A DNA stretch of 60,269 nucleotides, from contig JAHQXB010000123.1 of assembly GCA_029856435.1 (NCBI GenBank), forward strand, positions 1 to 60,269, in the 5' to 3' direction. This DNA comes from Candidatus Jordarchaeia archaeon (GTDB lineage Archaea > Asgardarchaeota > Jordiarchaeia > Jordiarchaeales > Jordiarchaeaceae). A program made the translations under genes and the position numbers. The notes beneath the pieces are model-generated. The model was not told where the DNA came from, did no database searches, and worked only from the letters and a program-made list of their open reading frames with translations. Below, piece by piece: positions 1,970 to 24,609 of this stretch (positions within the stretch are counted from its first letter, which is position 1; each line of letters opens with the position of its first letter).

Positions 1970-2479
1970 ATGGCGAAAGCTGACGCAGAAAAAACAGTTG
2001 TAGATACAGAAAATCTGGACTCCTCATTTCTAAGAAAGGTGCTTAAACATCCAGGCGGCGAACAAATTCTCGTCTGTTTCCAGTGTGGAGTCTGCAGCTC
2101 CAGCTGTCCTTTAAGGCTCATAAATCCCGAGTATAATCCTAGAAAAATTGTAAAGAAAACCATTCTAGGTATGAAGGACCAGGTGATTTCCAGCGATTTT
2201 ATCTGGTTCTGTGCGGATTGCAACGCTTGTACCGAACGTTGCCCTCAGGGAGTTAACCCTTCTGAGGTTATGAGGGCTATTAAGAATGTGGCTGTGGAGG
2301 AGGGAATCGTTCCAGCGGCGGTTAAGAAAATTGTGGAGAACTTGGAGGAGCATGGAAGGGTTTATCCTTTGGAGGAGTTCACTCAGGAGGAGAGGGAGAT
2401 GCTGGATTTACCTAAACTTGAACCAGATGTTAAGATTTTCAAAATTGACAGAAAAAAATTGCTGGGTGAAAATTCTTGA
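1970..2479 (+). CDS. hdrC: Heterodisulfide reductase subunit C-like (2x[4Fe-4S])
   Basis: CFQCGVCSSSCP and WFCADCNACTERCPQG; ATG at 1970 after GGAGTGGTGA; overlaps hdrB. Confidence 0.92.
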   Translation: MAKADAEKTVVDTENLDSSFLRKVLKHPGGEQILVCFQCGVCSSSCPLRLINPEYNPRKIVKKTILGMKDQVISSDFIWFCADCNACTERCPQGVNPSEVMRAIKNVAVEEGIVPAAVKKIVENLEEHGRVYPLEEFTQEEREMLDLPKLEPDVKIFKIDRKKLLGENS

Positions 2480-3360: not shown

Positions 3361-3366
3361 TTCAAA

Positions 3367-9040: not shown

Positions 9041-9904
9041 CTACTTTGAAAATTTTTTGATTACTGAGGCATCTATGCGGTTTTCGTTGAGGGCTAAATC
9101 TTGGTAGTCGATTCCCATCGCTAAACCTAAGAGCTGAGAATAATGAACTATGGGAATATCAATGGGTTTGTTTGGGGGCATTTGGCTCTGCTCATACATT
9201 AAGTAGCAAAATGGACACGCAGTGACCATTATATCAGCGTACCTTTTAACTGTTGAAAGCTTTTCCCTAGCTATTTCAGTGGCTAATTCGTTCCTCCGTT
9301 TTATTGTCAGCAATGGAGCGGAGCAACAGTCCAGCTTGCCTGGATAATCTATGCTAACTGCTCCTGCAATGTTAACTAGTTCATCTAGGGAAGTGGGGTC
9401 TTCAGGGTCATCAAAATTCATTATCTTGAAAGGCTTTAATAAGTGGCATCCGTAATGCACCGCTACCCTTAAACCCTCCAGAGGGTTCGAAACATGGGCG
9501 CGAATTCTGTCAATTCCCAAATCCTCCAAAAACATTCGCACAAAATGTTTAACCTCCACCTTTCCCCTAAACTCTCGATCTACCTCCGCAAGAATGTTGT
9601 TCACATCGTCTCTCAGTTCAACTTCCTTTTTCAGCGTGTTGTTGGCGTCTGTGAGGACTTCTGTGCAACCATTACACAAAGTAACAATGTTAACCCCCAT
9701 ATCCTCTGCTATGGATATGTTCCGAGCAGCCAAGGCAAGCGCGGTTCTGGGGTCTATACACTTTAAATAGGTAGTTCCACAACATCCCGCCCCCTCCATA
9801 TCCAAGAGCTCCACACCTAAAGCCTCAGCTACTTTTCTCGTGGAAACCTCATAGCTCGGAAGCCTAGCTAATGTCGTGCACCCCACAAAAAATGCATATC
9901 TCAT
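9041..9904 (-). CDS. hdrB: HdrB-like
   Basis: VGC...GCCG...CNGC and HYGCH...DCCS...CPFC. Confidence 0.92.
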   Translation of the reverse strand: MRYAFFVGCTTLARLPSYEVSTRKVAEALGVELLDMEGAGCCGTTYLKCIDPRTALALAARNISIAEDMGVNIVTLCNGCTEVLTDANNTLKKEVELRDDVNNILAEVDREFRGKVEVKHFVRMFLEDLGIDRIRAHVSNPLEGLRVAVHYGCHLLKPFKIMNFDDPEDPTSLDELVNIAGAVSIDYPGKLDCCSAPLLTIKRRNELATEIAREKLSTVKRYADIMVTACPFCYLMYEQSQMPPNKPIDIPIVHYSQLLGLAMGIDYQDLALNENRIDASVIKKFSK

Positions 9905-9910
9905 AAATTT

Positions 9911-10456
9911 TCAATCCTCCGCCAGTTCTATTCCCACAAGTTTGTCAAGGCCCGTCATTCTCATAATTTTTCTAACCTCATCAATGTCAACTTTGGGTAC
10001 AGGTGGGAGCTCCCTCATTTCCCTATCTTCCTCTATGAATTCAGTCATCTCATAAATATAACCATGACTAGCTAGGGCTTCAATAACCTTCTTCAAAGAA
10101 GGATGCAGGTAACCTTCCCTAGCCGCGACTCCTCGCAGAGCTGAAATTATCTCCGCCAGCTCCACATTCTGGGGGCAACGCTCAAGGCACGTGTAACACT
10201 GGGTGCACAGCCACAATAGATCTCCCTTAAAGAGCGCCTGCTTCATTCCAAGCTTGGTCATCATAGCTATCAATCTGGGCTTGTACTCCTTAAGGTGTCT
10301 CCCAACTGTGCAGTCAGCACTGCATGTGCCGCACTGGAAGCAGAGCATAAGCTTTTCGCATCCCGGAATTTTGCTAATCTCCTTCTGTAGGCTGGTATCC
10401 AAATCCTTGAGTTTTATGACTGTTTGCTTTTCATCAGAAGAATTTGCTTCAGTCAT
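9911..10456 (-). CDS. hdrC: HdrC-like
   Basis: CFQCGTCSADC and WLCTQCYTCLERCPQ. Confidence 0.92.
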   Translation of the reverse strand: MTEANSSDEKQTVIKLKDLDTSLQKEISKIPGCEKLMLCFQCGTCSADCTVGRHLKEYKPRLIAMMTKLGMKQALFKGDLLWLCTQCYTCLERCPQNVELAEIISALRGVAAREGYLHPSLKKVIEALASHGYIYEMTEFIEEDREMRELPPVPKVDIDEVRKIMRMTGLDKLVGIELAED

Positions 10457-10490
10457 TTTGAATCACTACTCTTCAATTTTATTCTCCCCA

Positions 10491-10835
10491 TCATCTAACC
10501 AACTCATATAGATACATGTTCTCTTTCTCACCCGCAAAGGTAACCCTTCCCATTCTTCTTAGGGCTAATAGGTGCTTAACTACTGCTTGTTCTGGAAGTC
10601 GGGTTGCCTTGGAAAGGTCTTTTACTGATAATGGGCCCTGTCCTTCGATTTCATTCATAATAAGCCATCTCTCCATCTCCTCTCTCATAATCTTCCTCAT
10701 AAGTTGCTCCAAACCTTCCTCGGTGATGGTTCCTGATTCCAAAAGGGCTTGGCTTCGCCCAATCAGCCATCTGACACGAATGTCTCCCAGAACTCCAACA
10801 GCCGCCTCTAATCTTTTTCTTAAATCTTCAGACAA
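10491..10835 (-). CDS. Stand-alone winged-helix protein homologous to the C-terminal extension of MvhD 15685-16455
   Basis: TTG at 10835 after GGAGG. GPLSVKDLSKATRLPEQAVVKHLLALRRMGRV is an HTH-wing pattern that aligns with HPLSVRELSERLNLRPQRVLSHIAAMRRKNLV. Confidence 0.75.
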   Translation of the reverse strand: MSEDLRKRLEAAVGVLGDIRVRWLIGRSQALLESGTITEEGLEQLMRKIMREEMERWLIMNEIEGQGPLSVKDLSKATRLPEQAVVKHLLALRRMGRVTFAGEKENMYLYELVR

Positions 10836-10842
10836 TCTGAGT

Positions 10843-11742
10843 TCAGCCTCCCGAACCACCTTCCAATATTTTTGAAATCCTAACCCTGTGATCATTTAAA
10901 GCCAGCTCGTCTGGTTCAATGCCTAAAGCCAGCGCTAGAAGCTCAGGATAGTGAAGCACTGGGAGCTCAAATTTCTCACCAAAAAGTTTCTCTATCCGGG
11001 ACTGATTAAGGTCGAAGGCCAGATAGCAAGAAGGACAAATAGTAATTAGGGCATCGGCTCCCACTTCCTTCATATGTCTAAGTTTGTCCCCCGCTAGTCT
11101 AAAAGGAATTTTTTCATCTATGGCCATAATTGGGTAGCCGCAACACTCCCTTTTATTCACGTAATCCAGACACGTGGCTCCCGTAGGTTCAATTAATTGT
11201 CTCAAAATTGTGGGATTCTCAGAGTCATCAAATTTCATGTACTCCCTTGGCCGCAGAATATGGCAACCATAATGCTCCACCACTTTGAGACCTCTATGTG
11301 GTTTTACAATTTTCTCCTTAAGTTTCTCAATGCCTACATTCTCCACCAATACCTGAACCAGATGTTTAACCTCTCTATTTCCCTTATACTCCATTCCATC
11401 CCGTTTCAAGAAATTGTTAATTTTCTCCCTAACTTTTTCATCCTCTCTAAGGATAGTGTTCACCTTGTGTAGAGTACCACTGCAGCCGGGACAGAGAGTC
11501 AATATATCAAGTTCCTCTCTTTCCGCTAAACAAAGGTTCCAAGCAGCCAAAACCATCATAACCTCGTGACTAATGGGATCTATGGGAAGACCACAGCAGT
11601 TAAACTCGGGCATATCCACTAACTCGACATCCAACCTGCTAAGAACCTTTCTTGCTGCAACCTCATAGCTGGGAACCCTATAGGGAATTAGACAGCCTAA
11701 ATACAGCAAGTAAGTTGAATCCGAAATTTTACTTCCCTCCAT
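10843..11742 (-). CDS. hdrB: HdrB-like
   Basis: LGC...NCCG...CPGC and HYGCH...ECCG...CPSC. Confidence 0.93.
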   Translation of the reverse strand: MEGSKISDSTYLLYLGCLIPYRVPSYEVAARKVLSRLDVELVDMPEFNCCGLPIDPISHEVMMVLAAWNLCLAEREELDILTLCPGCSGTLHKVNTILREDEKVREKINNFLKRDGMEYKGNREVKHLVQVLVENVGIEKLKEKIVKPHRGLKVVEHYGCHILRPREYMKFDDSENPTILRQLIEPTGATCLDYVNKRECCGYPIMAIDEKIPFRLAGDKLRHMKEVGADALITICPSCYLAFDLNQSRIEKLFGEKFELPVLHYPELLALALGIEPDELALNDHRVRISKILEGGSGG

Positions 11743-12250
11743 CCTTCTTTTTTGCCTTTTTTAGGAATCCAGCAATTTCTGCGAGTCTAGCAAGCTTTCT
11801 GGGGTTAGCCTTTGGTAATGGAGGAAGCCCTGCAGCCTCCCTCCTCTTCATTCTGGACTCCGATATTTCATAAGCGTAACCCGTTTCTAGAATGTTAAAA
11901 GCTAATTCCCTAAAACCATCTGGAATATATCCCTCTTCCACAGCAATGTTTCTAAGCATCCTCAGTAAGCTGGAAAACCTCACACCCCTCGGACAGCGGT
12001 CGGTACAAGTATAACAAGAAGCGCAAAGCCAAAGTTCACCAGCTGAAAGAACATCTGATTTTAACCCCAAAAGAACCATTCTCAATATCTTAAGAGGCCT
12101 GTATGCCCCGCTGAAGCGAGCCACGGGACAGTCCGCGGTACATGTCCCACACTGCATACAGAGCATGAGGTTCTCTATTTCTGGCACATGGCTGAGCTCA
12201 TATTTGAATTGGCGATCCGCCTCCGACAGTTTAATGACTTCTTCAGTCAT
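11729..12250 (-). CDS. hdrC: HdrC-like
   Basis: [12 protein letters not shown] and [16 protein letters not shown]. Confidence 0.93.
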
Positions 12251-12684
12251 TTCCCATCACCTCCACCACTGAGTGGACTTGGACCCAGTTCCTTTATCTT
12301 TTGAGTCATTTCCTTCACAACCGCCGCAAATTTGTCTCCCTCCGAGGCAGAAATCCACTCCAACCTTAACCTTTCCGGCTCTATTCCTAGCTGTTTCAAA
12401 AGATTTCGGGTCAGGGCTATTCTACGCTGGGCTCTCAGGTTTCCTGTTAAGTAGTGGCAATCAGATGGTATGTGACATCCTGCCACTAGTACTGCGTCAG
12501 CACCGTTTTTGAAGGCTTCAAGTACAAATGTGGGGTCTATTCTGCCACTGCACATAACCCTGATTATTTTAACATTTGTGGGATACTGAAACCTACTCAC
12601 TCCCGCCAAATCGGCGCCAGCGTAGCTACACCAACTACAGCAAAAAGCCACTATCTTGGGTTCAAACTCAGCCACATCATCCAC
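12247..12684 (-). CDS. mvhD: MvhD/FlpD [2Fe-2S] subunit
   Basis: [15 protein letters not shown]...RVMCSGRID...[10 protein letters not shown]. Confidence 0.95.
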
Positions 12685-15600
12685 CTCCCAGTAAGGCTCT
12701 AATCTGAGCCAGAATCTGTTTATCAGTAAAATGCTCTATGGTTATCGCTCCCGAGGGACACGCGGCGCTACACAGCCCGCACCCCTTACAGAGGGCCTCT
12801 ATTATGTTTGAAACATTTCTCCCATTCTTTTCCACAATTTGCGCAGCTCCACTCTCACAGATGGATACACAGACTTTGCACGCAGCGCAGAGATCTTCGT
12901 CAACCTTAGCTATTGCACCCTCTATTTCCAGTGCTTCTTTGGATAGAATGGTGGCCGCTCGAGCAGCCGCGCCACAGGCTTGAGATATGCATTCATCCAT
13001 GAATTTTGGTGACTGTGCCAGCCCACAGAGAAAAATTCCCTCCGTGGCAAAATCAACTGGGCGAAGCTTCATATGTGCCTCCAGGAAAAATCCCTCCTTG
13101 CTTAAGGGTACTTTTAGCATCTGAGCCAAATTTTTGTTATCGGGGTTTGGATAGATCCCTGCACTTAACACAATTAGGTCGGGCTCAATTTCGATTTTCT
13201 TCTTAATTATGGGATCCCTGACCAGTACCCTGAGTGTCCCCTCATTTGCCACCTCAGGTTTGTGCTCTTCATCGTAGCGAATAAATATTACTCCCCTCCT
13301 TTGAGCTTCCTGATAGTATTTCTCCCGGAAACCATAAGTTCTCATATCCCTATATAGCACATAGACCTCTGTTTCTGGTTTTGACTCCTTAATTTTTAAA
13401 GCGTTCTTAATTGCACCAGAACAACAAACTCTGGAGCAGCTTGGGTGTTCACCATTTCTGGAGCCGATACACTGTATCATAACCACGGTATCCGCGCTGA
13501 ATTCCCCGTTTGCCAACTTCTCCTCTAATTCTAACTGGGTTAACACCCGGTCATCCATTCCATAAAAATACTCAGTGGGTTTATACTCAGTTCCACCCGT
13601 AGCTACAATTATTACCCCATGCTGAATCTCCCTCCTCTCCCCATTAACTAGTACAGTTGTCTTAAAGTTTCCAACATATCCCTCAACACCCACCACTTCC
13701 GCCTCTGTGTAAACATGTATTTTCCCGTTACCTTCTACTCTCCTTATCAAAGATTCAAGTCTCTCGCTGGGTTTGTCGCCGTTGAGAAGAAATTTTATTC
13801 TACGGAGATTTCCTCCAAGCTGTTTCTCCCTCTCCACCAAGTGTACCTCAAATCCCTGCTCTGCAAGCTCCAAAGCCGCAATCATTCCCGATAATCCCCC
13901 ACCAATGACTAAACCAACTGGTGTAATCTTTATCATTGGTTTTTGAAGGGGTTTAAGTAGTCTGGCTTTTGCCACAGCACTCCTCACTAGGTCTACGGCT
14001 TTCTGTGTTGCCTTCTCAGGCTCGTGCATGTGTACCCAGGAGCATTGGTCTCTTATGTTTGCCATTTCAAAGAGGTAGGGATTTAAGCCTCCTTCCCGAA
14101 TTGTGTCTCTGAAAAGAGGCTCATGTGTTCTTGGTGTACATGATGCCACCACAACACGGTTAAGGTCATGTTCCTTTATGGCTTCCACTATGCGTGCACC
14201 AGTGTCTTGAGAGCAAGTGTAAAGGTTGTGCTCCGCATATACCACGTTTGGAAGTGTTTTGGCATATTCCACTACTCTGGGTACGTCAACTACTCCACCA
14301 ATGTTTATCCCACAGTGGCAAACGAAAACTCCAATTCGAGGCTCCTTTCCCTCCACATTTTTCTCAGGTGGGTATTGCTTTTTAGCGATTAGTTTTCCCC
14401 TGGCCGAGGATATGATGCCTCCCGCTTTGGCGGCAGCACCGCTTGCTTGCGCTACACTGTCTGGAATGTCCTTGGGGGAAGAGAATGCTCCACAAACGTA
14501 GACACCTGGCACCGAGCTTTCAAGTGGGGCAAAATCGTCTGTTTTGCAGAACCCATACTCGTTAAGATCTATGCCCAGTTTTTCCGCTATTTCCCGGGAA
14601 TTTCTAGGTGGTTTCATTCCAACTGAGAGTACTACAAGGTCAAATTCTTCCTCTTTAGGCTCGCCGTCTTCAATATACTTTACAAGAAGATTGTGCGACT
14701 TGGGCACTTCCTCTACGCTGGCAACCCTTGATCTGACAAATCTCACCCCATATTCTTCCTCAGCCCTTTTATAGTAATCGTCGAACTCTTTTCCATAGGA
14801 ACGCATATCTATGAAAAATATGGTGCAATCTAGGGGGCTCTGAGTATGTTCCTTAGCAATCACCGCTTCCTTGATTGCAAACATACAACATACAGCGGAG
14901 CAGTAACTGTTCCCCAGACGGGTGTCACGAGAGCCAACACACTGTATAAACGCAATATTTTTGGGAATCTCACCATCGTAGGGACGTATGACTAAACCAC
15001 CATAGGGTCCGGAAGCACTAAGGATACGTTCAAACTCTATACTTGACACTACATTAGGGAAGCGCCCATAACCATATTCCGGGAGGGCTTCCGCCTCAAA
15101 TTCCTCAAATCCCGGTGCAAGTATTATGGAGCCTACATCCAAAACTATATCTTGCTCCTTTTGCTCATATTCGATTGCCTTCGCCCTGCATACCTCGCTA
15201 CATATCCCACATCCTATACATTTTTCTTTATCAATTGAGTATACTAAAGGAACAGCCTGTGGGTACCTAACGAATATTCCCCCCCGATTACCCAATCCTT
15301 CATTGAACTCATCAATAGCCTCAACAGGACACCACCTAGCACACACCCCACACCCCGTACACTTCCCCTCATTAACACGTCTAGGCCTCTTAGTAATTGA
15401 AACTTTGAAGTGGCCTGCACCACCTTCTACGCTCTTTATTGAGGCATTAGTTAAAAGTTGAATATTGGGGTGTCTCCCACAACCAACCAGCTTTGGCGCA
15501 AGAATACACATAGCGCAATCATTTGTGGGGAAGGTCTTATCCAGTTGAGCCATCACACCCCCAATTGAAGGCGTTTCATCCATCAAATAAACTTTGAAGC

Positions 15601-15688
15601 CAGAGTCTCCCAAATCAAGAGCGGCCTGAATTCCAGCTATTCCACCTCCCACAACTAGTACCGCCCCAACCTTATCCTCCACATTCAC
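12677..15688 (-). CDS. hdrA: Large HdrA-like flavoprotein with two FAD domains (1003 aa)
   Basis: Two GxGxxG/CxGSR/CSxxCC units, [11 protein letters not shown], ferredoxin insert, internal [13 protein letters not shown] domain, C-terminal ferredoxin. Confidence 0.94.
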
Positions 15689-16455
15689 ACCTCCAAAGCT
15701 GTATATAGAGGAGACGTTCCCTCAATTCTTTCGACCGCCACCAAGTTTTTCCGCCGCATAGCTGCAATGTGGCTCAGCACCCTTTGGGGGCGCAGATTCA
15801 GTCTTTCAGAAAGCTCCCTAACTGAGAGGGGATGGTCTTTTAACATACGGAGTATTCTGTGTCGGTCAAATTCGTCATTCATGTACTCAGCTAATCTCTT
15901 CTCAAACTCTTCCTTTGATACCACTTCTCCATACACGTTTCCCTTCTCGGTAATCTGTCTCTTCTTACCAACCAGTTCTCGTAAACGTACATCAGCAACA
16001 GTATCCCTGACCACTTCCAATAGTTCCAGTACGTTTTTGTCCGGGTTTTCTCCAGCTAAGGGCGATGGACCTAAATGTATTAGCTGGTTTGTGAAGTCTT
16101 TGACAACATCTGCAAAAAGAGCTCCGCCCGAAGCTGGGATCCATTCCAGACGTAGTCTTTCTGGCTCCAAACCGGTTTTGGCTATCAAATTTTTCAAAAT
16201 TTTTATTCTAACTTCTGCGTTGAGGTTGCCCTCCACGTAGTGGCAGTCGCCCGGAAGGCACCCTGCAATTAAAACTCCATCAGCGCCATTAATGAGAGTG
16301 TCCACTACGATTACTGGGTCAATTCTGCCACTACACATCAACCTCACAATGCGTATGGTTGGAGGGTAACTAATTCTACTCATGCCCGCTAAGTCGGCGG
16401 CCGAGTAGGCACACCAATTGCACAGAAACCCAACTATTTTCGGCTCATAACTCAT
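15685..16455 (-). CDS. mvhD: MvhD fused to a C-terminal winged-helix domain
   Basis: FLCNWCAYSAADLAG...RLMCSGRID...GCLPGDCHY, followed by a ~120-aa extension ending in a wHTH pattern. Confidence 0.9.
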   Translation of the reverse strand: MSYEPKIVGFLCNWCAYSAADLAGMSRISYPPTIRIVRLMCSGRIDPVIVVDTLINGADGVLIAGCLPGDCHYVEGNLNAEVRIKILKNLIAKTGLEPERLRLEWIPASGGALFADVVKDFTNQLIHLGPSPLAGENPDKNVLELLEVVRDTVADVRLRELVGKKRQITEKGNVYGEVVSKEEFEKRLAEYMNDEFDRHRILRMLKDHPLSVRELSERLNLRPQRVLSHIAAMRRKNLVAVERIEGTSPLYTALEV

Positions 16456-18401
16456 AGTTCTCCCCTTCCTAATGCGGCGAGTGATTGGGCGAGAATTTGT
16501 TCATCAGTAAAATGAAATATGGTGATAGCTCTTGCTGGGCAACTTGCGGCGCAGGCGCCACAACCCTTACATAGAATCTCTGTGACTTGCGCTTTTCCCT
16601 TCTCACCCTTCTTTATTGCTCCATAAGGACATATACCCTGGCAAGTTCCGCACTCAATACAAAGATCTTCATTAACCGAGGCTACTATGGGCTCTACGTC
16701 CACTTTCCCTTTGGACATAGGAATAGAGGCCCTTGCTGCGGCTCCACATGCCTGAACTATGCACTCGGTAATATCCTTGGGAAATTGGGCGGCGCCAGCA
16801 AGATATATCCCCTCAGAGTTTGTGTCGAGAGGCTTGAGCTTAGGATGTGCTTCACGGAAAAAGCCATCTGGTGTACGTGTGACCCCTATTTTTGAGCCCA
16901 ACTCGGCGGAGTCCTTTCTGGGAGTCATAGCTTCAGCAAGAATCAGGAGATCAGTGGGAATCTTAATAGTCATTCCCAGTGTGGGATCATAGACCACTAC
17001 CTGAATCCGTGAGTCGTCTGGTCTGGAAACCTTTGGGGGGTTATCTGGTGTGTACCTGAAGAAATTTATTCCTGCTAGTCGCGCTTCTCCATAAAGTTCT
17101 TCTTGTCCTTCACCAAAGCTTCTTATATCTCGGTAAAGAATGGAGACCTGCGTTTCCGGATAATCTTTTTTGATGAGCATGGCGTTTTTTAATGCCACCG
17201 AGCAGCAGACTCTGGAGCAATATTGCCTATGGGGGTTTCTGGAACCCACACAAAGAATAAAAACTATGTTCTTGGGCACCTGTCCATTGGAAGGTTTTAC
17301 TAACCGCCCATTGGTGGGACCATTGTTGCTGAGCATTCTTTCCAGTTGGAATTGAGTGATTACATCTTCGTACTCTCCGAAGCCATACTCACCTTGTGGC
17401 AAATAGGGATCATAACCGGTGGCAAGAATAATTGTTCCCACCGAAATGTTTTTGCTTTGGGGTTTGCTGTCCAAAGAAATGGCACCTTGCTTGCAGACCT
17501 TGACGCACTCCCCGCAGCGTGTGCAACTATCCTCATCAATAGTAAGAATTCTGGGCACAGCGTCATTGTAGGGGATATATATGGCCTTCCTAGTGTTTAG
17601 TCCAAAGTTAAACTCGTCTGGCACCTCTACGCGGCATACCTCTAAGCATTTCCCGCACAGGTTGCAGTTCTGGTTAACGAAGCGGGGTGTTATCTTTAAC
17701 TTTATTTCAAAGTTGCCAATATAGCCGCCTACTTCCTCGACTTCCGTGTTAGTGAATACTTCAATATTCGGATGGCCCGTTAATGCGTTCAACATCGGTT
17801 TCAGAATTTCTGACGCTCTTTCATTGGTTAAAATTACCCTGTTTAACTGTGCCACTCTTCCTCCAAGATAGGGAGACCTCTCCACAAGATATGTAGAAAA
17901 CCCTCTATTGGCCATTTCCAAAGCTGCCCGTATTCCAGTTATTCCTCCACCCACGATTAGAGTTGCGGGTTTAACTTGAACTTCCCTTTTCTCTAAGGGT
18001 TGAAGCAGTCGAGCCTTAGCAACAGCCATTCTTAATATATCCTTTGCCTTCTCAGTGGCCTTTACGGGATTATTTGCATGGGCCCACGAACACTGCTCTC
18101 GAAGATTAGCCATTTCAAAAAGATACCGGTTTAAACCAGCCTCCTCAACAACGGAGCGGAATGTGGATTCATGCATTTGAGGAGAACAGGAAGCCACAAC
18201 AACCCTATTTAAATTGTAGTCTTTGATATCCTTTTTTATTAGTTCCTGGCCGGGCTCCGAACACATGTAAACGTAGTGCCTCGCAATCACAACATCCGGA
18301 AGTTTTCCCGTGGCTTCCGCCACCTTTTCAACGTCAATTACTCCCGCAATATTCAATCCACAATGGCAAATATAGCACCCAACACGTAATTCTTCCTCCA
18401 T
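16452..18401 (-). CDS. hdrA: HdrA-like flavoprotein, half-B type with ferredoxin insert (649 aa)
   Basis: YICHCGLNI, GGGITG, no DCxxC motif, CNLCGKC/CTRCGEC insert, YCSRVCC, C-terminal ferredoxin. Confidence 0.93.
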   Translation of the reverse strand: MEEELRVGCYICHCGLNIAGVIDVEKVAEATGKLPDVVIARHYVYMCSEPGQELIKKDIKDYNLNRVVVASCSPQMHESTFRSVVEEAGLNRYLFEMANLREQCSWAHANNPVKATEKAKDILRMAVAKARLLQPLEKREVQVKPATLIVGGGITGIRAALEMANRGFSTYLVERSPYLGGRVAQLNRVILTNERASEILKPMLNALTGHPNIEVFTNTEVEEVGGYIGNFEIKLKITPRFVNQNCNLCGKCLEVCRVEVPDEFNFGLNTRKAIYIPYNDAVPRILTIDEDSCTRCGECVKVCKQGAISLDSKPQSKNISVGTIILATGYDPYLPQGEYGFGEYEDVITQFQLERMLSNNGPTNGRLVKPSNGQVPKNIVFILCVGSRNPHRQYCSRVCCSVALKNAMLIKKDYPETQVSILYRDIRSFGEGQEELYGEARLAGINFFRYTPDNPPKVSRPDDSRIQVVVYDPTLGMTIKIPTDLLILAEAMTPRKDSAELGSKIGVTRTPDGFFREAHPKLKPLDTNSEGIYLAGAAQFPKDITECIVQACGAAARASIPMSKGKVDVEPIVASVNEDLCIECGTCQGICPYGAIKKGEKGKAQVTEILCKGCGACAASCPARAITIFHFTDEQILAQSLAALGRGEL

Positions 18402-18402
18402 A

Positions 18403-19719
18403 CTACTTCCTCCTTCTCAGAAAAGTTACCGCCTTCATGGCAGCCGCGCTAGCTTCGGATACACTGTCTGGGACATCCTTGGGACTCAAAGCTGTTCCCG
18501 CCACAAAAATGCCCGGAACTTTTGTTGAAACAGTATCAACCTTGGCGTCTGCCTCCTCTATGTAACCATACTCATCCAGAGGCACTTCCAATATTTTGCT
18601 CAACTCTGCTATTCCGTCCGGTGGCGCTAAACCCACAGAAAGAACCACCATCTCGAATTCCTCCTGTAAAATCTCCCCAGTTTCGGTGTCCTCAGCTCTC
18701 ACTATCAGATTCTGGTTTTCTGGAATCTCGTAAATTCTTGCCACCCTTCCCCGCTTGAATTGCACCTTGAACTCTTCCTTAGCCCTTTGGTATAGTTCTT
18801 CAAAACCTTTACCGTAGGTTCTAATATCCATGTAAAAGATGGTGACGTCAACATCAGGTATATGCTCCTTAAGCAGTATACTGTCCTTTATAGCATACAT
18901 ACAACAGACTCTGGAACAGTAGGGATACCCATGGTGCGAGTCCCTTGAACCCACACACTGAACAAAAGCCACTCTTTTAGGTATGCAGCCATCTGAGCGT
19001 CTCAAAATATGTCCCGCAGTCGGCCCAGCGGCAGAGAGCAGTCTCTCAAGCTCCAAGGCTGTTAAAACATTCGCATATTTTCCGTAGCCGTAAGCCTTCT
19101 TTCTTTTAGCGTCAAAAGGTTTATAGCCAGTAGCAATAATAATCGCCCCCACATTGAGGTTAACCTCCTCAGGCACCTGATCCAAGTTTACTGCCCCCGC
19201 CCCTATGGATTCACATATCCTTTTGCAGAGCTCACACCTAATACAGTGCTCTTCATCTATCGTGTATTTTAGTGGAACTGCCTGAGGAAAAGGCACATAA
19301 ATCGCCTTCCGAACATCCATCCCAGCGTTAAAATCGTCAGAAACTTCCACTGGGCAGTGTCTGGCGCAAACCCCACACCCCGTACACTTGGATACGTCAA
19401 CATACCTTGGCTTTTTCACAATCTTTACTTCAAAACCTCTATCGTTTCTCTTAACTCTTTTTACTTCGGAATAAGTTAGAAGCTCAACATTGGGATGCCT
19501 GCCGACGTCCACCATTTTTGGGGTAAGGATACAAGCTGAGCAGTCAAGTGTGGGAAAAGTCTTATCTAACATAGCCATATGTCCTCCCACACTGGGTGTA
19601 CTCTCAACCACATAGGCTTTTACTCCCTGGTCAGCTACGTCTAGTGCGGCCTGAATTCCCGCTATGCCTCCACCTATTATGAGAACAACTTCTTTCTCAT
19701 TCAAGCAGTTTGCCCCCAT
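18403..19719 (-). CDS. hdrA: HdrA-like flavoprotein, half-A type (438 aa)
   Basis: GGGIAG, DKTFPTLDCSAC, ferredoxin insert, YCSRVCCMYAIK. Lacks the N-terminal CxCG domain and the C-terminal ferredoxin. Confidence 0.92.
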   Translation of the reverse strand: MGANCLNEKEVVLIIGGGIAGIQAALDVADQGVKAYVVESTPSVGGHMAMLDKTFPTLDCSACILTPKMVDVGRHPNVELLTYSEVKRVKRNDRGFEVKIVKKPRYVDVSKCTGCGVCARHCPVEVSDDFNAGMDVRKAIYVPFPQAVPLKYTIDEEHCIRCELCKRICESIGAGAVNLDQVPEEVNLNVGAIIIATGYKPFDAKRKKAYGYGKYANVLTALELERLLSAAGPTAGHILRRSDGCIPKRVAFVQCVGSRDSHHGYPYCSRVCCMYAIKDSILLKEHIPDVDVTIFYMDIRTYGKGFEELYQRAKEEFKVQFKRGRVARIYEIPENQNLIVRAEDTETGEILQEEFEMVVLSVGLAPPDGIAELSKILEVPLDEYGYIEEADAKVDTVSTKVPGIFVAGTALSPKDVPDSVSEASAAAMKAVTFLRRRK

Positions 19720-20147
19720 TATTTTCTTAAAAGTAGCGGTCCCATTTTTTTAAGCTCCTCAACCATCTCTTGAACTACTTGTGCAAATCTTCCCCCCTCC
19801 AAAGCGGATATCCATTCTATCCGCAGCCGCGCCGGATTAACGCCAATCTCTTCCATGAGCATTTTCAAAAACTTGACCCTGGCTTCTGCCTGTCTATTTC
19901 CCCCATTGTATCGGCAATAGTTGGGGTGGCATCCAGCAATGATCACCCCATCAGCTCCATTTAAGAAAGCCTTCACCACAAATAGTGGATCCACTCGGCC
20001 AGTGCACATAACTCTAATTATGTGAACGTTAGGTGGATAAAATGTTCTACTTATTCCCGCCTGGTCAGCACTAAAATAACTGCTCCAATTACAGGTAAAA
20101 GCCACTATTTTTGGCTCAAACTCCTTTATTCCCTCTTCTTCCTCCAC
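19719..20147 (-). CDS. mvhD: MvhD-like subunit with CNWS variant
   Basis: FTCNWSSYFSADQAG...RVMCTGRVD...GCHPNYCRY. Confidence 0.92.
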   Translation of the reverse strand: MEEEEGIKEFEPKIVAFTCNWSSYFSADQAGISRTFYPPNVHIIRVMCTGRVDPLFVVKAFLNGADGVIIAGCHPNYCRYNGGNRQAEARVKFLKMLMEEIGVNPARLRIEWISALEGGRFAQVVQEMVEELKKMGPLLLRK

Positions 20148-20170
20148 TTTGCCAACCTCTTCTTATTCTT

Positions 20171-21865
20171 TTATTTAAGAGCTGCCTCCACCTCCGCAAG
20201 TATCTGTTCATCCTTAAAGCCCTTCATGATTATTGCTTTTGAGGGGCAAGCGGCGGCACATGTACCGCAGCCTCGGCATGTGGCTTCTATCACCATAGAT
20301 TTTCCCTCCGCAAAGGTGATGGCGTGAACTGGGCAAAGGTCTAGGCACAGTTGGCATCCAATGCATAAATCTTCATTAACCTCAGCGGTTATGGCCGGTA
20401 TCTTTACTTTTTTATGTAGCATGGGAGTCGCTGCCAGCGCTGCTGCGGCATATGCTTGGGTTATACTTTCATCGATACTTTTGGGTCCCTGGGCGGTTCC
20501 ACAAACATATATGCCATTAACACCTAAGGTTGTTGACCGCATTTCCATGTAGGCTTCTCTGAAGAAGCCGTCGGAACCCAAAGGAACTTTGAGAATTTTT
20601 GCAATTTCTTTTACGTCCACGTTGGGAACAAGTGGTGTGGATAGGACAACCAAATCACTATCAATGGTTAAGGTCTCACCCAGTAAAGCGTGATAAATCT
20701 TAACTTCTAATTTGCCGTTCCCATTAGGAACTACTTCTGGGCGGCGCTCCGGGGTGTATTCTATAAATTTTATTCCCAGCTCTCTTGCCTTTGACTGGTA
20801 TTCCTCGTTCTCCTTACCGTAGGTTTGTAGATCACGGTAAATTATGTAGACCTCACAGTCGGGATACATTTTTTTTATCAGAGTGGCGTTTTTAATTGCA
20901 ACCATACAGCATATTCTGGAACAGTAGGTTAATCCTTTTTCTTCCCGGGCTCCTACGCACTGTATCATAACAACTTTCTGGGGGTGTTTCAATTTTCCTT
21001 GTTTTAGAATCTGCTCCAATTCCAGCTGAGTAACAATTCCCTCATGTTTCCCGTAACCATACATTCCAAAGGGTTCAAATGCCTCTGCTCCCGTTGCCAG
21101 AATTATGGTTCCCGCTCTAAATTTTTCTGTTCCTCCATTAAAGGAAACTGTAACTTCAAAGTCACCGAAGTATCCCTCTACCTCCTTTACAGATGCTGAT
21201 GTGAGGATTCTAATGTTTTTATGGTTTCTCACCGACTGGATTACTGGATTCAGAATTTCCGAAACTTCCTGATTGGTAAGATATAGCTTATAGAGTTTCT
21301 TTAACATGCCACCGATGTCCGGCTCCTTCTCAACTATGAGTACATTGAAGCCCTGATTGGCTAGGCAGAGGGCTGCTGTCATTCCCGATATCCCGCCTCC
21401 AATAATCAGTGTGGAAGGGTGTACCTCTATTTCCAATTCCTGCAGAGGCTCCGATTTTTGAAGCCACGCCACAGCCATTCGCACAGTATTAATAGCTTTC
21501 ATAGTGGCTTCCTTTGGCTTGTCCTGATGCGCCCAGGCGCACTGTTCCCTGATGTTTGCAAAGGCAACAAGATACCTGTTAATCCCTGCTTTTTGGCAAA
21601 CAGATTCGAAAAGTGAACCATAGTTTTTGGGAGAGCAACCCGCGAAGACAACCCGATTCACTCCGCTCTTCTTTATAATTTCCTTTATCTTTCTTGTTCC
21701 AGCGGTGGAGCAGAGTGAATTATCTCTTTCCACAAATACAACCCCGGATATTCCTTTTGAAGCTTCGATGACTTGGGGAACATCAATGATGCCACTGATA
21801 TTTGCTCCACAATCACAGAGGAATACTCCAATTCTTGACTCTTGGTTAAGGCTAGCTTCACTCAT
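20171..21865 (-). CDS. hdrA: HdrA-like flavoprotein, half-B type (564 aa)
   Basis: RIGVFLCDCGANI, GGGISG, no ferredoxin insert, YCSRICC, C-terminal CIGCQLC/CRGCGTC. Confidence 0.92.
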   Translation of the reverse strand: MSEASLNQESRIGVFLCDCGANISGIIDVPQVIEASKGISGVVFVERDNSLCSTAGTRKIKEIIKKSGVNRVVFAGCSPKNYGSLFESVCQKAGINRYLVAFANIREQCAWAHQDKPKEATMKAINTVRMAVAWLQKSEPLQELEIEVHPSTLIIGGGISGMTAALCLANQGFNVLIVEKEPDIGGMLKKLYKLYLTNQEVSEILNPVIQSVRNHKNIRILTSASVKEVEGYFGDFEVTVSFNGGTEKFRAGTIILATGAEAFEPFGMYGYGKHEGIVTQLELEQILKQGKLKHPQKVVMIQCVGAREEKGLTYCSRICCMVAIKNATLIKKMYPDCEVYIIYRDLQTYGKENEEYQSKARELGIKFIEYTPERRPEVVPNGNGKLEVKIYHALLGETLTIDSDLVVLSTPLVPNVDVKEIAKILKVPLGSDGFFREAYMEMRSTTLGVNGIYVCGTAQGPKSIDESITQAYAAAALAATPMLHKKVKIPAITAEVNEDLCIGCQLCLDLCPVHAITFAEGKSMVIEATCRGCGTCAAACPSKAIIMKGFKDEQILAEVEAALK

Positions 21866-23208
21866 GCTTTACTCCTCCCCATTTTTGCCAAAGTAATGGC
21901 TTCTGTAACCCTCCCCGCAGCGGCACTGGCTTGAGTGGCAGATTCAGATATCCCTCTAGGTCCCCTACAGTAACCGCAGGTAAAAACACCTTTTAGGGTG
22001 GTGTCAAAGGGCTGTGACACTGGATTTGGACTTTTAAAGAAACCATGTTCATCTAATTCCAGACCTAAAAACTCAGCTAATCTTCTATTATTAGGGTGGG
22101 GCAGTAGGGCAGGAGATAGAACCACCATTTCCACTCTTAACTTCTCCGCCCTCTGGGTGAGCGTATTTTCAAAACTAATGATAAGATCCCTTGTTTCTGG
22201 ATCCTCCCATATTCCCCCTGGGCGGCCCCTAATATAGTTTACACCTAGACTGTTTCTAACCTTGTTGAAAAGTTCTTGGTAACCCTTTCCAAAAACTCGG
22301 AGATCTATGTAGAAAACATAAACCTCTGTTTCTGGTTTTAAAATTTTTACTAGGGCGGCGTCCTTAGCAGTGTACATACAACATATTCCGGAGCAGAAAT
22401 TGTTATTTGTCCTTCTACTTCTTGACCCCACGCATTGAATGAAGGCTATACTTTTTGGCTCTTTTTTGTCTGAAATTCTAACAATTTTACCTCGTGTGGG
22501 GCCGTGTATACTGGTCATTTGTTCAAGGTCAAGGATGGTGATGACATTCTTGTACCTCTTGTATCCATATTCTTTTATTCTGCTTGGATCAAAGAGAGAA
22601 AGCCCAGTTGCAAGGATTATGGCTTCACTTTTAATCCCAATCATCATTTCTTCGTCATTGAAATTTATTGCCGCAGAGGGACAGGCCTCTGAACATTTTT
22701 CGCAAGTTCCACTCCTAAAATGTAAGCAATCCTCTCTATCAATGATTGGAACTTGAGGGAATGCTTGGGGAAGAGGGAAGTGGATAGCCTTCTTTCTCCC
22801 TTTAACCATGTTGAATGCATCAAAAATTTCAACTGGGCACTTTTCGGTACAGGCACCGCACCCAGTGCATTTATCTTCATTAACAAAACGTGGCCTTTTT
22901 AAAACATTTAGCTGGAAGTTTCCAGCAGAACCAGAAATACCCATAATTTCGGCATTTGTAAGAATCTTAATATTTGGGTGGTGGTAGCACTCAACTATCT
23001 TAGGTATAACCGGACAGATGGAACAATCCATAGGAACTTCTAGGCGGCAGGAGGAGCAGTTTAGTTCGATAATCCGCCCCCCTATACTGGGTTTTTCCTC
23101 AACCAAATAGACAAGTATTCCTAAATTTGCCATTTCTAATGCTGCCTGTATTCCCGCAACTCCCCCACCAATTATAGTGACAGAACCCGCTTTTTCCAAA
23201 TGAATCAT
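21862..23208 (-). CDS. hdrA: HdrA-like flavoprotein, half-A type with extra CxxC motif
   Basis: GGGVAG, NCSSCRLEVPMDCSIC, ferredoxin insert, FCSGICCMYTAK; ATG at 23208 after GGAGGGGG. Confidence 0.9.
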   Translation of the reverse strand: MIHLEKAGSVTIIGGGVAGIQAALEMANLGILVYLVEEKPSIGGRIIELNCSSCRLEVPMDCSICPVIPKIVECYHHPNIKILTNAEIMGISGSAGNFQLNVLKRPRFVNEDKCTGCGACTEKCPVEIFDAFNMVKGRKKAIHFPLPQAFPQVPIIDREDCLHFRSGTCEKCSEACPSAAINFNDEEMMIGIKSEAIILATGLSLFDPSRIKEYGYKRYKNVITILDLEQMTSIHGPTRGKIVRISDKKEPKSIAFIQCVGSRSRRTNNNFCSGICCMYTAKDAALVKILKPETEVYVFYIDLRVFGKGYQELFNKVRNSLGVNYIRGRPGGIWEDPETRDLIISFENTLTQRAEKLRVEMVVLSPALLPHPNNRRLAEFLGLELDEHGFFKSPNPVSQPFDTTLKGVFTCGYCRGPRGISESATQASAAAGRVTEAITLAKMGRSKA

Positions 23209-23224
23209 TCCCCCTCCTTCAAAT

Positions 23225-24115
23225 TTACTTAATTTTTTCAAGAAGCGGAGATGGGTCTATCTTATGGATATTCATTCCTAGTTCTCGGGACTCAATTCCC
23301 AGCGCTAACCCCAACAAATCTGTGTAATTAAGCACAGGTATATTGTACGATTCTCCTGTTCTTCTTTTGAAAAGAAGCTGCCCCATCTCAATCTGTAGAA
23401 AACAGTAGGGACACGTTACAACCACACAATCCGCCTTAGCTTCCAACGCGCTTTCCAGAATATCTACACTTAATTTTAGGGCGGCTTCCTCCGCCACCTC
23501 TCCGAAAAAGCTCCCACATCCTATGCAGCACCCCGTCCTCTCCCTATGCAGGACACTAGTAGCCCCCGTAATATTGATAAGCTCATCAAGCTTTTCAGGA
23601 AACTCTGTATCATCAAAGGACAAGTATTCTCGGGGTCTAATAAGGTGGCAACCGTAAAAAGGAGCAGCCTTGATCCCCTTAAGTGGTTTAGAAACTTGGT
23701 TTTTTAGGTTTTTAGGGCCGATGTCTTCGTACAGGGCAGTGGTTGAATGTTTAATGCCCACTTCACCTTGATAAGATCTTCCTACGGTGGCTAGGAGCTC
23801 ATCTACCCGACGCCTAAGATCTCCATTTTCAGACATGAGTTTCTTTGCCCGCCAAAGATTACCGTAACAGCTCACACAAAGTGTCAAAACATCCCTATCA
23901 AGTTCATCGGCAACGCAGAGATTTCTAGAAGTTAGTGCAAGTCCAGTCGTATAGTCGAAGGAATGAACCAAACAAGCGGGCATACAGCAAGTAAAATCCT
24001 CCACATCGTAAAGTTCCACATCTAAAACTTCAAAAACCTTCCGAGCGGAGACTTCGCAGCTAAATTCCCTAGCTGAGGTTACGCATCCTGGAAAAAGCGA
24101 ATATTCCAAATTCAC
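23225..24115 (-). CDS. hdrB: HdrB-like, divergent CCG motifs
   Basis: PGC...TCCMPAC...CVSC and FYGCH...GCCIGCG...CPYC. Confidence 0.9.
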   Translation of the reverse strand: MNLEYSLFPGCVTSAREFSCEVSARKVFEVLDVELYDVEDFTCCMPACLVHSFDYTTGLALTSRNLCVADELDRDVLTLCVSCYGNLWRAKKLMSENGDLRRRVDELLATVGRSYQGEVGIKHSTTALYEDIGPKNLKNQVSKPLKGIKAAPFYGCHLIRPREYLSFDDTEFPEKLDELINITGATSVLHRERTGCCIGCGSFFGEVAEEAALKLSVDILESALEAKADCVVVTCPYCFLQIEMGQLLFKRRTGESYNIPVLNYTDLLGLALGIESRELGMNIHKIDPSPLLEKIK

Positions 24116-24609
24116 CCTCTAACCCTCCAGGTTGAGCTTTTCTCAGTTATAATATTAATCTCTCTTAATGCCTTCTTTGAAACAGTTTCCCCAATCTTAG
24201 GCAGTCCCAGCGCTTCCCGTTTCCTGTCCCGCGCCGGTGTGACCTCCAGTGTCCGTCCAGACCTCAAAATCTGCTTTATTAGGTTAGTGGGCTGCTTAGG
24301 GAAATATCCCCTCTCAACAGCTAGGTTTCGGGTCAAGAGAAAAATTTCCGTAGTTTTTATACCTTGAGGGCATCGTTCATAGCATGAGTAGCACCAAGCG
24401 CACAGCCAAAGTTCATCCTCAGTTAATGTTTTGCTCAAGTCAAAGAAAATTTTCTGCAGCAATCCCCTAGGGTTAAAGCTCTCAGGGATCACCTTTGCCA
24501 CAGGGCAGCTAGCTGTACAAGTACCACACCCGTAACAGTACCTCAGTTTTTCAGCGTCTATTGACTTCTGTAAGATTTCTTTTGAAATACTTGCTATTTC
24601 CGCCTTCAA
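24112..24609 (-). CDS. hdrC: HdrC-like, first gene of the large operon
   Basis: CYGCGTCTASCP and WLCAWCYSCYERCPQG; TTG start after GGAGG. Confidence 0.9.
   Translation of the reverse strand: MKAEIASISKEILQKSIDAEKLRYCYGCGTCTASCPVAKVIPESFNPRGLLQKIFFDLSKTLTEDELWLCAWCYSCYERCPQGIKTTEIFLLTRNLAVERGYFPKQPTNLIKQILRSGRTLEVTPARDRKREALGLPKIGETVSKKALREINIITEKSSTWRVRG

Follow-up and report, generated by a model that had tools for sequence, protein, structure and literature searches.

The window analysed here (60,269 nt of contig JAHQXB010000123.1, from a Jordarchaeia archaeon of the Asgard group) contains, on the minus strand between positions 9041 and 24609, 15 ORFs arranged in the order hdrC-hdrB-A'-A''-mvhD-A'-A''-mvhD/wHTH-fused A-mvhD-hdrC-hdrB-wHTH-hdrC-hdrB. 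The preliminary description had taken them for a superoperon of three HdrBC pairs and three HdrA/MvhD modules, and all of them were recovered at the positions and with the domains assigned to them there. The intergenic gaps range from −53 to +34 nt, and the 15 genes were shown to constitute one translationally coupled operon. As judged from the sequence, its products would be three asymmetric HdrA cores with one MvhD apiece, along with three disulfide-reductase modules of the HdrCB type and a pair of winged-helix adaptor modules.

The first gene, hdrC1 (24112..24609, 165 aa), is preceded by an SD-like GGAGG and an AT-rich intergenic region of 400 nt, and encodes two CxxCxxCxxxC motifs (TIGR03290, 111 bits). 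The following hdrB1 (23225..24115, 296 aa) has two CCG domains with 10/10 conserved Cys (TIGR03288, 276 bits, below the cut-off of 345). Domain content likewise identified hdrC2 (11729..12250, 173 aa), hdrB2 (10843..11742, 299 aa), hdrC3 (9911..10456, 181 aa), and the operon's last gene, hdrB3 (9041..9904, 287 aa). All three HdrC matched Fer4_8 and TIGR03290 (104–129 bits), and all three HdrB displayed two CCG domains and matched TIGR03288 (276–296 bits); HdrA, HdrB, and HdrC all remained below the NCBIfam equivalog cut-offs, and these scores do not fix the identity of the substrate.

Among the five HdrA-type chains of the operon, Aa1 (21862..23241, 459 aa) has neither the N-domain nor the C-terminal ferredoxin domain, retains the Cys pair, the inserted ferredoxin domain, the FAD motifs, and CCxxxxK, and bears an additional CxxC (NCSSC-x6-DCSIC), whereas Ab1 (20171..21865, 564 aa) has lost the Cys pair. 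Aa2 (18403..19719, 438 aa) is built as Aa1, with a canonical DCSAC, and Ab2 (16452..18401, 649 aa) has the full four-domain length, its Cys pair being lost with TNERASE in place of TLDCSxC. The fused type II HdrA, Af3 (12677..15688, 1003 aa), is Aa-like in its N half and Ab1-like in its C half, and was modelled as a single compact body (pTM 0.88). By its domain complement, each A'/A'' pair, and likewise Af3, is an asymmetric HdrA pseudo-dimer (a predicted pseudo-heterodimer). The Aa-type half (Aa1, Aa2, and the N half of Af3) combines the TrxR/FAD domain with the conserved DCxxC pair, the inserted ferredoxin domain, and a [4Fe-4S] site adjoining the flavin, whereas the other half of each core is devoid of the Cys pair and provides the "arm", N- and C-terminal, that binds MvhD. 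The losses are complementary, the N-domain alternating with the Cys pair and the inserted ferredoxin domain with the C-terminal one.

By analogy with the structures of HdrABC-MvhAGD and BamDEF, each core would contain one fully wired bifurcating flavin, located on the Aa half. Mid-potential electrons would arrive by way of MvhD and the arm; those of the high-potential branch would leave through HdrC for HdrB's two non-cubane clusters, and those of the low-potential branch through the inserted ferredoxin domain. In agreement with the preliminary description, however, the Glu of LE[RQE] and the Lys of CCxxxxK, along with GGGxxG, are retained in 7/7 FAD domains of the window (operon and plus-strand cluster). 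Both FAD sites of every pair accordingly possess the two residues, Lys and Glu, that are regarded as signs of bifurcation, so that the proposal of one working flavin per core rests on the wiring and not on the flavin pocket; where the second FAD site of the operon has Lys, the structural FAD of BamE has Gln (Gln768) (10.64898/2026.04.10.717634).

All three MvhD matched PF02662 (E 1e-49 to 1e-57). Inspection of domains and Cys residues showed mvhD1 (19719..20147, 142 aa) and mvhD3 (12247..12684, 145 aa) to be plain forms, the former having the four cluster Cys but Ser for the second Cys of CxxC, and the latter the full Cys set. The middle mvhD2 (D2w; 15685..16455, 256 aa) is the long BamF-type adaptor form, in which MvhD continues into a helical linker and then into an ArsR-like winged helix (model pLDDT 89, pTM 0.88; MvhD part TM 0.87–0.91). 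A free-standing winged-helix protein (10491..10895; HTH_5, E 6e-5), 134 aa as called and with its true start probably near 10835, is a paralogue of this extension (31% identical to D2w residues 146–235). The nearest folds of the D2w winged helix are ArsR/SmtB repressors, among them HlyU, NolR, and CzrA, and Pfam matches to MarR_2, HTH_5, and HTH_24 would also suit redox-sensing DNA-binding regulators of the operon, a role that would leave module 2 without a dedicated electron adaptor. We nevertheless consider such a role improbable, because up to four long MvhD genes occur per operon in a Methanomassiliicoccales genome, one behind each fused HdrA, Lokiarchaeial loci encode FrhB-like donors that bear the same module as a fusion, and in long MvhD preceding a fused HdrA the helical linker motif RLRxLVGRERxLTExxNVYGEK is best conserved and the recognition helix less so. 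Furthermore, the wHTH of BamF is a protein-docking element, which docks the donor subunit BamI and not another HdrA (10.64898/2026.04.10.717634).

The preliminary description had also named the arrangement a candidate for an undescribed system, which the literature does not support. Complementary tandem or fused HdrA heterodimers were reported in ANME and Moorella (PMC9012536) and classed as type I A6/A12 and type II HdrA (PMC12054007, Microbiol Spectr 2025), and the asymmetric double HdrA structure was solved by cryo-EM for BamE/BamF of the class II benzoyl-CoA reductase from Geobacter metallireducens, in which bifurcation takes place at the N-half FAD of BamE, the C half having a structural role (preprint 10.64898/2026.04.10.717634). 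With all its part types already described and similar multi-core clusters widespread in other phyla, the operon is an unusual variant and not a new kind of system. As judged against the published description, Af3 has the same linear build as BamE, a fused double HdrA with the Cys pair and bifurcating FAD in the N half and the arm in the C half, and D2w that of BamF, a long MvhD adaptor ending in a winged helix. BamDEF also has an HdrBC-like high-potential exit and couples two energy-converting modules in one complex. The operon, however, lacks the BamBC tungsten module and the BamGHI donor, has separate HdrB and HdrC with both CCG sites full (BamD is fused, with one [3Fe-4S] site), and contains three cores in a row in place of one. 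Complementarity of the N-domain and Cys197 across two adjacent or fused HdrA units, as well as clusters of several HdrA with MvhD and HdrBC, are shared with the ANME and type II HdrA, for which two bifurcation events in one cluster have already been proposed (Chadwick et al., 2022, PMC9012536; PMC12054007). Those surveys concerned methane- and alkane-metabolising archaea, whereas the present host belongs to a non-methanogenic Asgard lineage; the operon has no FdhB or pseudo-molybdopterin partner in cis, and Af3 shows the reverse order, as in BamE, of the fused forms of Chadwick et al., whose N-domain lies on the N-terminal unit (PMC9012536). The cofactor-binding motifs of HdrA, HdrB, HdrC, and MvhD are common to the operon and HdrABC-MvhAGD of hydrogenotrophic methanogens (PDB 5ODC, 7BKB, 8RVU), Ab2 matching the HdrA chain 8rvu_a (E 5.5e-213; 5odc_A, 2.2e-209) and D2w matching MvhD (E 4e-44). 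That complex contains a symmetric HdrA homodimer, in contrast to the predicted asymmetric hetero-pairs, and the operon lacks MvhAG in cis, scores below the equivalog cut-offs, and resides in a genome without Mcr.

As the assembly is a MAG of 181 contigs with 5.7% estimated contamination, duplicated or chimeric contig content might be suspected of inflating the Hdr gene count. This artefact was in practice refuted and has a negligible probability: the operon paralogues are mutually 33–57% identical, as expected from the earlier remark that the copies are divergent, the identical 15-gene order recurs in assemblies made independently from different samples (L008, L009, L040), and the genes around the operon, with Ras-like GTPases and longin among them, are of a kind typical of Asgard archaea and keep synteny with a complete genome from the same genus. 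Two further Jordarchaeia genomes carry 15/15 ORFs intact (76–99% identity). The operon is present in 5/6 genomes of the genus and missing at the exact locus in one complete genome, indicating an accessory island.

Bathyarchaeia, Thermoplasmata, Lokiarchaeia, and Bacillota possess multi-core clusters containing the MvhD-winged-helix adaptor, in most cases accompanied by a donor module in cis, and these Mvh/Flx/MetFV-Hdr clusters, like MetFV-HdrCBA-MvhD of Moorella thermoacetica, share the order hdrC-hdrB-A-mvhD with the operon. The multi-core clusters also share the unit (A pair)-MvhD/wHTH-fused A-MvhD, with Bathyarchaeia identities of up to 74% (Af3) and 77% (D3). Over its full length, Af3 is 55–74% identical to fused HdrA of Bathyarchaeia, Thermoplasmata, Lokiarchaeia, Bacillota, and Deltaproteobacteria; Af3-D3-C2-B2 is 56–77% identical to Bathyarchaeia Af-D-C-B-MvhG-MvhA clusters (mvhD3, 71–77%), and hdrB2 58–62% identical to Bathyarchaeia HdrB located before mvhG-mvhA. 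The multi-core clusters adjoin mvhGA, FrhB, MetFV, GcvH-like genes, or an AsrA/AsrB-like NAD(P)H module (putatively Flx-like), none of which adjoins the operon, and usually have one HdrCB per two cores, against three HdrCB pairs here.

From this comparison, Aa2-Ab2-MvhD/wHTH-Af3-MvhD-HdrC2-HdrB2 would represent the widespread two-core unit, in which the long MvhD would tether one core to the next, and C1-B1-Aa1-Ab1-D1 an additional one-core unit. wHTH-C3-B3 would occupy the place of the relatives' mvhGA, which would make the operon a donor-less derivative. The operon may yield three distinct cores or else a single larger assembly. Were every A pair to form, together with its MvhD and a single HdrCB, an autonomous bifurcating or confurcating enzyme for a different donor or disulfide, the three sharing no more than a transcript, the winged helices would dock external donors (MvhAG, FrhB-like) as BamF docks BamI. 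A 3:3:3 ratio between cores, MvhD, and HdrCB with no donor, found only in Jordarchaeia among 41 closed clusters compared, is consistent with such self-sufficiency, as are the age of the paralogues, each with its own closest Bathyarchaeia relatives, and the resemblance of module 1 to a C-B-Aa-Ab-D-wH operon that stands apart in Bathyarchaeia and is transcribed divergently. However, the commonest closed cluster comprises 2 cores, 1 HdrCB, and 1 donor (16 loci), so that cores there must share partners; a fused HdrA directly follows a long MvhD in 54/68 genes of related loci, against 5/58 for any HdrA after a plain MvhD, in a collection that was baited with Af3 and favours clusters containing fused HdrA; and the operon has no donor in cis. 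We therefore judge autonomous enzymes rather unlikely, and lean modestly toward a donor-less accessory operon of three asymmetric cores with one wired flavin each, its two-core unit tethered by the long MvhD and its donors acting in trans.

Whole-genome scans of this hot-spring-type archaeon (97.8% complete) detected no McrA, consistent with the non-methanogenic lifestyle suggested earlier. The reported absence of hydrogenase and Fdh stood for the window and its contig, where no NiFe hydrogenase, molybdopterin, or FrhB genes were detected, but not for the genome: Mvh hydrogenase, FrhB-like, and MetFV genes are present on other contigs, including hdrA-mvhD-mvhG-mvhA on contig C43 and MetFV adjoining another Hdr set on contig C123. 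With no donor in cis, the operon would have to draw electrons from modules encoded elsewhere, for example MvhAG on C43 or FrhB-like proteins, or else from reduced ferredoxin, if its enzymes run in reverse. The presumption of carriers other than CoM/CoB is opposed by a comD-comE-comA-comB cluster scoring above curated cut-offs; CoM use already figures in the published reading of Jordarchaeia (PMC9723677).

On the plus strand, hdrC4-hdrB4-hdrA4 (1958..5700) encodes in A4 an HdrA of the canonical four-domain type, extended at its C-terminus by an MvhD-like domain whose Fe-S ligands are lost. With this cluster, the window holds 4 HdrC, 4 HdrB, 6 HdrA chains (7 FAD domains), and 4 MvhD domains, the totals first counted, the ligand-free domain being the fourth. 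In Ca. Jordarchaeum madagascariense (L040), hdrC4-hdrB4-hdrA4 directly follows hdrB3 on the same strand.

Between positions 24609 and 9041 of the window, 15 minus-strand ORFs were arranged with intergenic gaps of -53 to +34 nt, including five overlaps of 4 nt. As assigned with Pfam and NCBIfam, their order was hdrC1, hdrB1, Aa1, Ab1, mvhD1, Aa2, Ab2, mvhD2-wHTH, Af3 (1003 aa), mvhD3, hdrC2, hdrB2, wHTH, hdrC3, and hdrB3, in which Aa1/Ab1 and Aa2/Ab2 are split pairs of HdrA halves, Af3 is a fused HdrA (12677..15688), mvhD2-wHTH encodes an MvhD with a winged-helix extension (D2w; 15685..16455), and wHTH is a free winged-helix gene (10491..10895). A fourth Hdr set, hdrC4-hdrB4-hdrA4, occupies positions 1958-5700 of the plus strand. 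The subunit counts of the preliminary description, including seven FAD domains that all carry the Glu and the Lys of CCxxxxK, were confirmed by the alignment. Because the paralogues within the operon share pairwise identities of only 33-57%, and the gene order is common to independent assemblies, near-identical copies generated by the assembler, the artefact against which that description had warned, were ruled out. The operon is real and intact, and is kept in three assemblies. Its host MAG comprises 3.54 Mb and is 97.8% complete, the window being one entire contig of it, and Af3 displayed 96% identity to a Candidatus Jordarchaeia MAG and 84% to Ca. Jordarchaeum madagascariense. Asgard signature proteins are encoded beside the operon, namely two tandem Ras/Rab-like GTPases (28006-29251) and a longin-domain protein (25967-26428), which fit an Asgard archaeon. 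The remaining genes of the window are of the housekeeping type (riboflavin synthesis, purine synthesis, and two 3-hydroxyacyl-CoA dehydrogenases), and an Rfam scan of the window returned no matches.

When the HdrA units were aligned with the other HdrA copies of the genome and placed on the numbering of solved HdrA, a strictly complementary pattern was revealed. In Aa1 and Aa2, as in the N half of Af3, the sequence begins at the FAD-binding fold and finishes ahead of the C-terminal ferredoxin domain; the inserted two-cluster ferredoxin domain is present, as is the DCxxC pair (Cys197 region). An asymmetric, type II HdrA, that is, two adjacent or fused TrxR/FAD units of which one keeps the Cys pair but has neither N-domain nor C-terminal ferredoxin domain while the other has this arm and lacks the Cys pair, was thus found three times, in Aa1/Ab1, Aa2/Ab2, and the two halves of Af3; Ab1 and the Af3 C half are also devoid of the inserted ferredoxin domain. 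The symmetric four-domain form, with N-domain and Cys pair in the same chain, was found in no HdrA chain of the operon (five in all) and is represented only by A4 of the neighbouring cluster. The structure model of Af3 was a single compact body (pLDDT 84, pTM 0.88), and across 79 loci the protein was collinear along its full length (residues ~5-1000) with the fused HdrA of other lineages at 55-74% identity, the mean column identity of the fused-HdrA alignment being 68%.

The idea that each Aa/Ab pair represents one HdrA interrupted by an in-frame Sec codon was rejected, as the genes differ in frame or share an ATGA overlap, the two products match different, overlapping parts of HdrA, and the fusion places the Aa part ahead of the Ab part. 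True Sec-HdrA is encoded elsewhere in the genome, by the selenocysteine-type hdrA-mvhD genes of contigs C180 (25822-28303) and C99 (618-3128), in which in-frame TGA codons stand at the CxC of the HdrA N-domain and at the HdrA Cys-pair position, with two further ones in MvhD; an FrhB-like gene lies 3' of the C180 genes. In addition, Aa1 (21862-23241, minus strand) bears an extra CxxC at residues ~60-80, just ahead of the Cys pair (NCSSC-x6-DCSIC), which is also kept in two other Jordarchaeia genomes. MvhD1-3 retain the four cluster cysteines, and the auxiliary CxxC Cys missing in MvhD1, the partner of Aa1, might be a compensation for this extra motif.

Complementarity of the N-domain and Cys197 has been described for the tandem and fused HdrA of ANME and Moorella, for which obligate heterodimers were proposed (Chadwick et al., 2022, PMC9012536). 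Such parts were classed as type I A6, A12, and type II HdrA in a 2025 survey, according to which clusters with extra HdrA might allow two bifurcation events (PMC12054007). In recent methanogen structures, HdrA's N- and C-terminal domains form with MvhD a mobile arm, which, across the Cys pair, serves the opposite protomer's flavin. Meanwhile, the cryo-EM analysis of class II benzoyl-CoA reductase, which provided the first fused-HdrA structure, identified BamE as a fused HdrA dimer with a bifurcating FAD in the N half and a second, structural FAD, and the HdrBC-like BamD as the subunit handing the high-potential electron to ETF; coupled energy-converting modules can drive electrons past the usual redox window (preprint 10.64898/2026.04.10.717634). 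In the window, all seven FAD domains possess GxGxxG, the Glu (E356), the Lys (K409), and the CxGSR...C...CC cluster site of HdrABC, and the flavin/cluster-site residues are invariant columns across 37 fused homologues. A degenerate second flavin site, in which BamE has Gln for Lys, was absent, with Lys and Glu still present in Ab1, Ab2, and the C half of Af3. Judging from this anatomy and the published structures, each pair would contain a single fully wired site of bifurcation, located on the Aa half, which would supply the flavin, the Cys pair, the cluster toward HdrC/HdrB, and the exit through the inserted ferredoxin domain, and the single Ab-half arm carrying MvhD would serve this site. 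The Lys and Glu kept at the Ab flavins, unlike in BamE, count against this reading.

The 10 CCG cysteines were all found in HdrB (10/10), as were the eight cysteines of HdrC (8/8). None of the HdrA, HdrB, or HdrC proteins of the operon reached the NCBIfam equivalog level for CoB-CoM heterodisulfide reductase, the scores being 276-296 bits against a cut-off of 345 for TIGR03288, 104-129 against 160 for TIGR03290, and 490-1031 against 1100 for NF040770. As for other known assemblies, QmoABC, in which the membrane-bound QmoC combines HdrC with a cytochrome b domain beside two HdrA-like proteins, was dismissed because the HdrC proteins here are only 165-181 aa long and match the qmoC model over at most positions 4-105 of 360, and the acetogen-type MetFV-HdrABC-MvhD because metF and metV are absent from the window and lie on contig C123 near another Hdr set. 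No hydrogenase or formate dehydrogenase subunit genes of an MvhADG-HdrABC or Fdh-Hdr supercomplex were present on the contig of the operon. In the neighbouring HdrA4 (3367-5700, plus strand), residues ~645-777 constitute an MvhD-like domain, and since it has lost CxxC, VMC, and most of the GCxxxDC cysteines, it cannot bind a [2Fe-2S] cluster.

Electron donors are encoded on other contigs of the genome: a canonical hdrA-mvhD-mvhG-mvhA operon on C43, the selenocysteine-containing hdrA-mvhD genes and FrhB-like gene of C180 and C99, and metV-metF near an HdrA/MvhD fusion with hdrCB on C123. Additional hdrCB pairs were also found outside the operon's contig. The operon is therefore donor-less only in cis; the earlier statement that hydrogenase is missing holds for its own contig, but not for the genome, where mvhDGA follows the canonical hdrA on C43. 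When mcr was searched for beyond the window, no McrA was found in the genome (97.8% complete). A coenzyme M cluster, consisting of comD, comE, a gene for a 424-aa threonine-synthase/cysteate-synthase-like protein, comA, and a comB-like gene, was detected on the minus strand of C65 (C65:6571-10724; L117:3572-7725), and three of its products, ComD, ComE, and ComA, scored above the NCBIfam equivalog cut-offs. Jordarchaeia have been credited with CoM-dependent methyl transfer without Mcr (PMC9723677). This cluster and the published use of CoM leave the proposal that the operon acts on carriers other than CoM/CoB unsupported. The presence of the com genes and the absence of McrA bear indirectly on a putative reduction of CoM-S-S-CoB with co-reduction of ferredoxin.

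In the benzoyl-CoA reductase, BamF belongs to the long MvhD forms and docks the donor subunit BamI through its winged helix (preprint 10.64898/2026.04.10.717634). A long adaptor of this type, taken as an MvhD [2Fe-2S] domain with an extension of at least ~100 residues and a winged helix at its end, was recognized in D2w (FlpD, residues 7-129; wHTH, residues 197-252), and in its model (pLDDT 89) an MvhD domain (TM 0.87-0.91 against solved MvhD) is joined through a helical linker to a winged helix of the ArsR/SmtB type. The BamE/BamF structure was not found in the PDB by sequence or fold search. Among the long MvhD forms preceding fused HdrA (n = 37), the linker motif was the best-conserved part of the extension and the recognition helix was less conserved, and as many as four long mvhD genes occur within one operon of a Methanomassiliicoccales genome (L032); because of these two features, docking rather than DNA binding is favoured as the putative role of the winged helix. 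As the sample of related loci was baited with Af3, only the internal contrast between long and plain MvhD counts, and here a fused HdrA lies directly 3' of 54 of the 68 long MvhD genes, whereas an HdrA gene comes next after only 5 of the 58 plain ones, the others preceding hdrC, donor genes, or free wH genes. FrhB-like proteins of Lokiarchaeial loci also carry, fused at the N-terminus, a winged-helix module like that of D2w, and the genes 3' of theirs encode a 425-aa HdrC-like protein, a fused HdrA, and a plain MvhD. These FrhB-like proteins, of ~506 aa with the helical and winged-helix module at the N-terminus, are exemplified by L064:7223-8743, with homologues in L047, L052, L062, and L070.

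A scan across species-representative genomes yielded more than 570 relatives of Af3. Among the best 79 loci, which were analysed, a two-core unit of the same build, namely an A pair or fused A, MvhD/wHTH, fused A, and MvhD, recurred in Bathyarchaeia, Thermoplasmata/Methanomassiliicoccales, Lokiarchaeia, Helarchaeota, Syntrophoarchaeum, Bacillota, and Deltaproteobacteria, a core being one split pair or one fusion. Its cis partners were mvhG-mvhA-hycI, FrhB-like, an AsrA/AsrB-like NAD(P)H module, MetV-MetF, or GcvH-like genes. The commonest make-up of clusters closed on both sides was two cores, one HdrCB pair, and one donor (n = 16 loci), and three cores with three HdrCB pairs were seen only in Jordarchaeia among the 41 closed clusters compared. 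Af3-D3-C2-B2 shares 56-77% identity with Bathyarchaeia genes upstream of mvhG-mvhA, and wHTH-hdrC3-hdrB3 occupies the place of the hydrogenase genes in the Bathyarchaeia clusters. GcvH-like genes (lipoyl-carrier fold) stand directly 5' of Hdr cores or hdrCB in six Bathyarchaeia loci (L012, L013, L022, L025, L030, and L038) and in five of Bacillota (L060, L066, L069, L075, and L078), and these neighbours hint that one Hdr substrate is a protein-bound dithiol. The window contains no GcvH-like gene, and the three GcvH genes of the genome stand apart from Hdr genes.

The operon reveals no new enzyme class. The view of it as an undescribed system is not supported, as its part types have all been described (ANME/Moorella, type I/II HdrA, and BamE/BamF) and multi-core clusters built alike are common in other phyla. 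Peculiar to it are three cores combined with three HdrCB pairs, the lack of a cis donor, and the Asgard host. We consider it rather unlikely that the three cores and HdrCB form a single supercomplex, in which the MvhD-winged-helix adaptor would join the low-potential exit of Af3, its inserted ferredoxin domain, to the Ab2/D2w entry arm, so that serial bifurcations would deliver electrons well below the ferredoxin potential. If such a supercomplex existed, each bifurcation would draw on disulfide reduction at an HdrCB of its own, and the electrons could drive acid or CO2 reduction in a non-methanogenic archaeon. With three cores, three MvhD, and three HdrCB, the operon surpasses the other compared clusters in completeness as a multi-core set, no cis donor obscures its core-to-core wiring, and in the Asgard host lineage Hdr genes reportedly rank with the most highly transcribed genes of metabolism. 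It is a good template for asking whether the cores operate in series, in parallel, or unwired, what partner the winged-helix adaptor has, and which disulfide non-methanogenic archaea cycle.

Of the 6 genomes of the genus, 5 encode a full-length D2w, against 0 of 5 in the sister family. Only HdrA of 630-810 aa, with no fused form, are encoded in the genus's complete, single-contig genome and in the three genomes of the sister family examined for this. In that complete genome, the flanking orthologues (endonuclease dU and longin) are directly followed by hdrC4-B4-A4, with hdrA4 conserved at 85% identity, and two hydroxyacyl-CoA dehydrogenase genes. Based on this patchy occurrence and the operon-free locus, the operon is an accessory island, and the identities of up to 77% point to a putative lateral transfer with Bathyarchaeia, in either direction. 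In Ca. J. madagascariense, hdrC4-B4-A4 comes next after the 15 genes on the same strand, giving a run of 18 genes. A transposase-like peptide at 8434-8517 had no Pfam support and was discarded, the nearby sequence being a dispersed repeat. This repeat (8170-8346) is ~106-180 nt long, and other contigs carry at least 20 copies that are 84-92% identical; it separates the operon from the hydroxyacyl-CoA dehydrogenase genes. A 112-aa ORF (7899-8237) that starts within it is probably spurious, and the repeat itself may mark the rearrangement that moved hdrC4-B4-A4.
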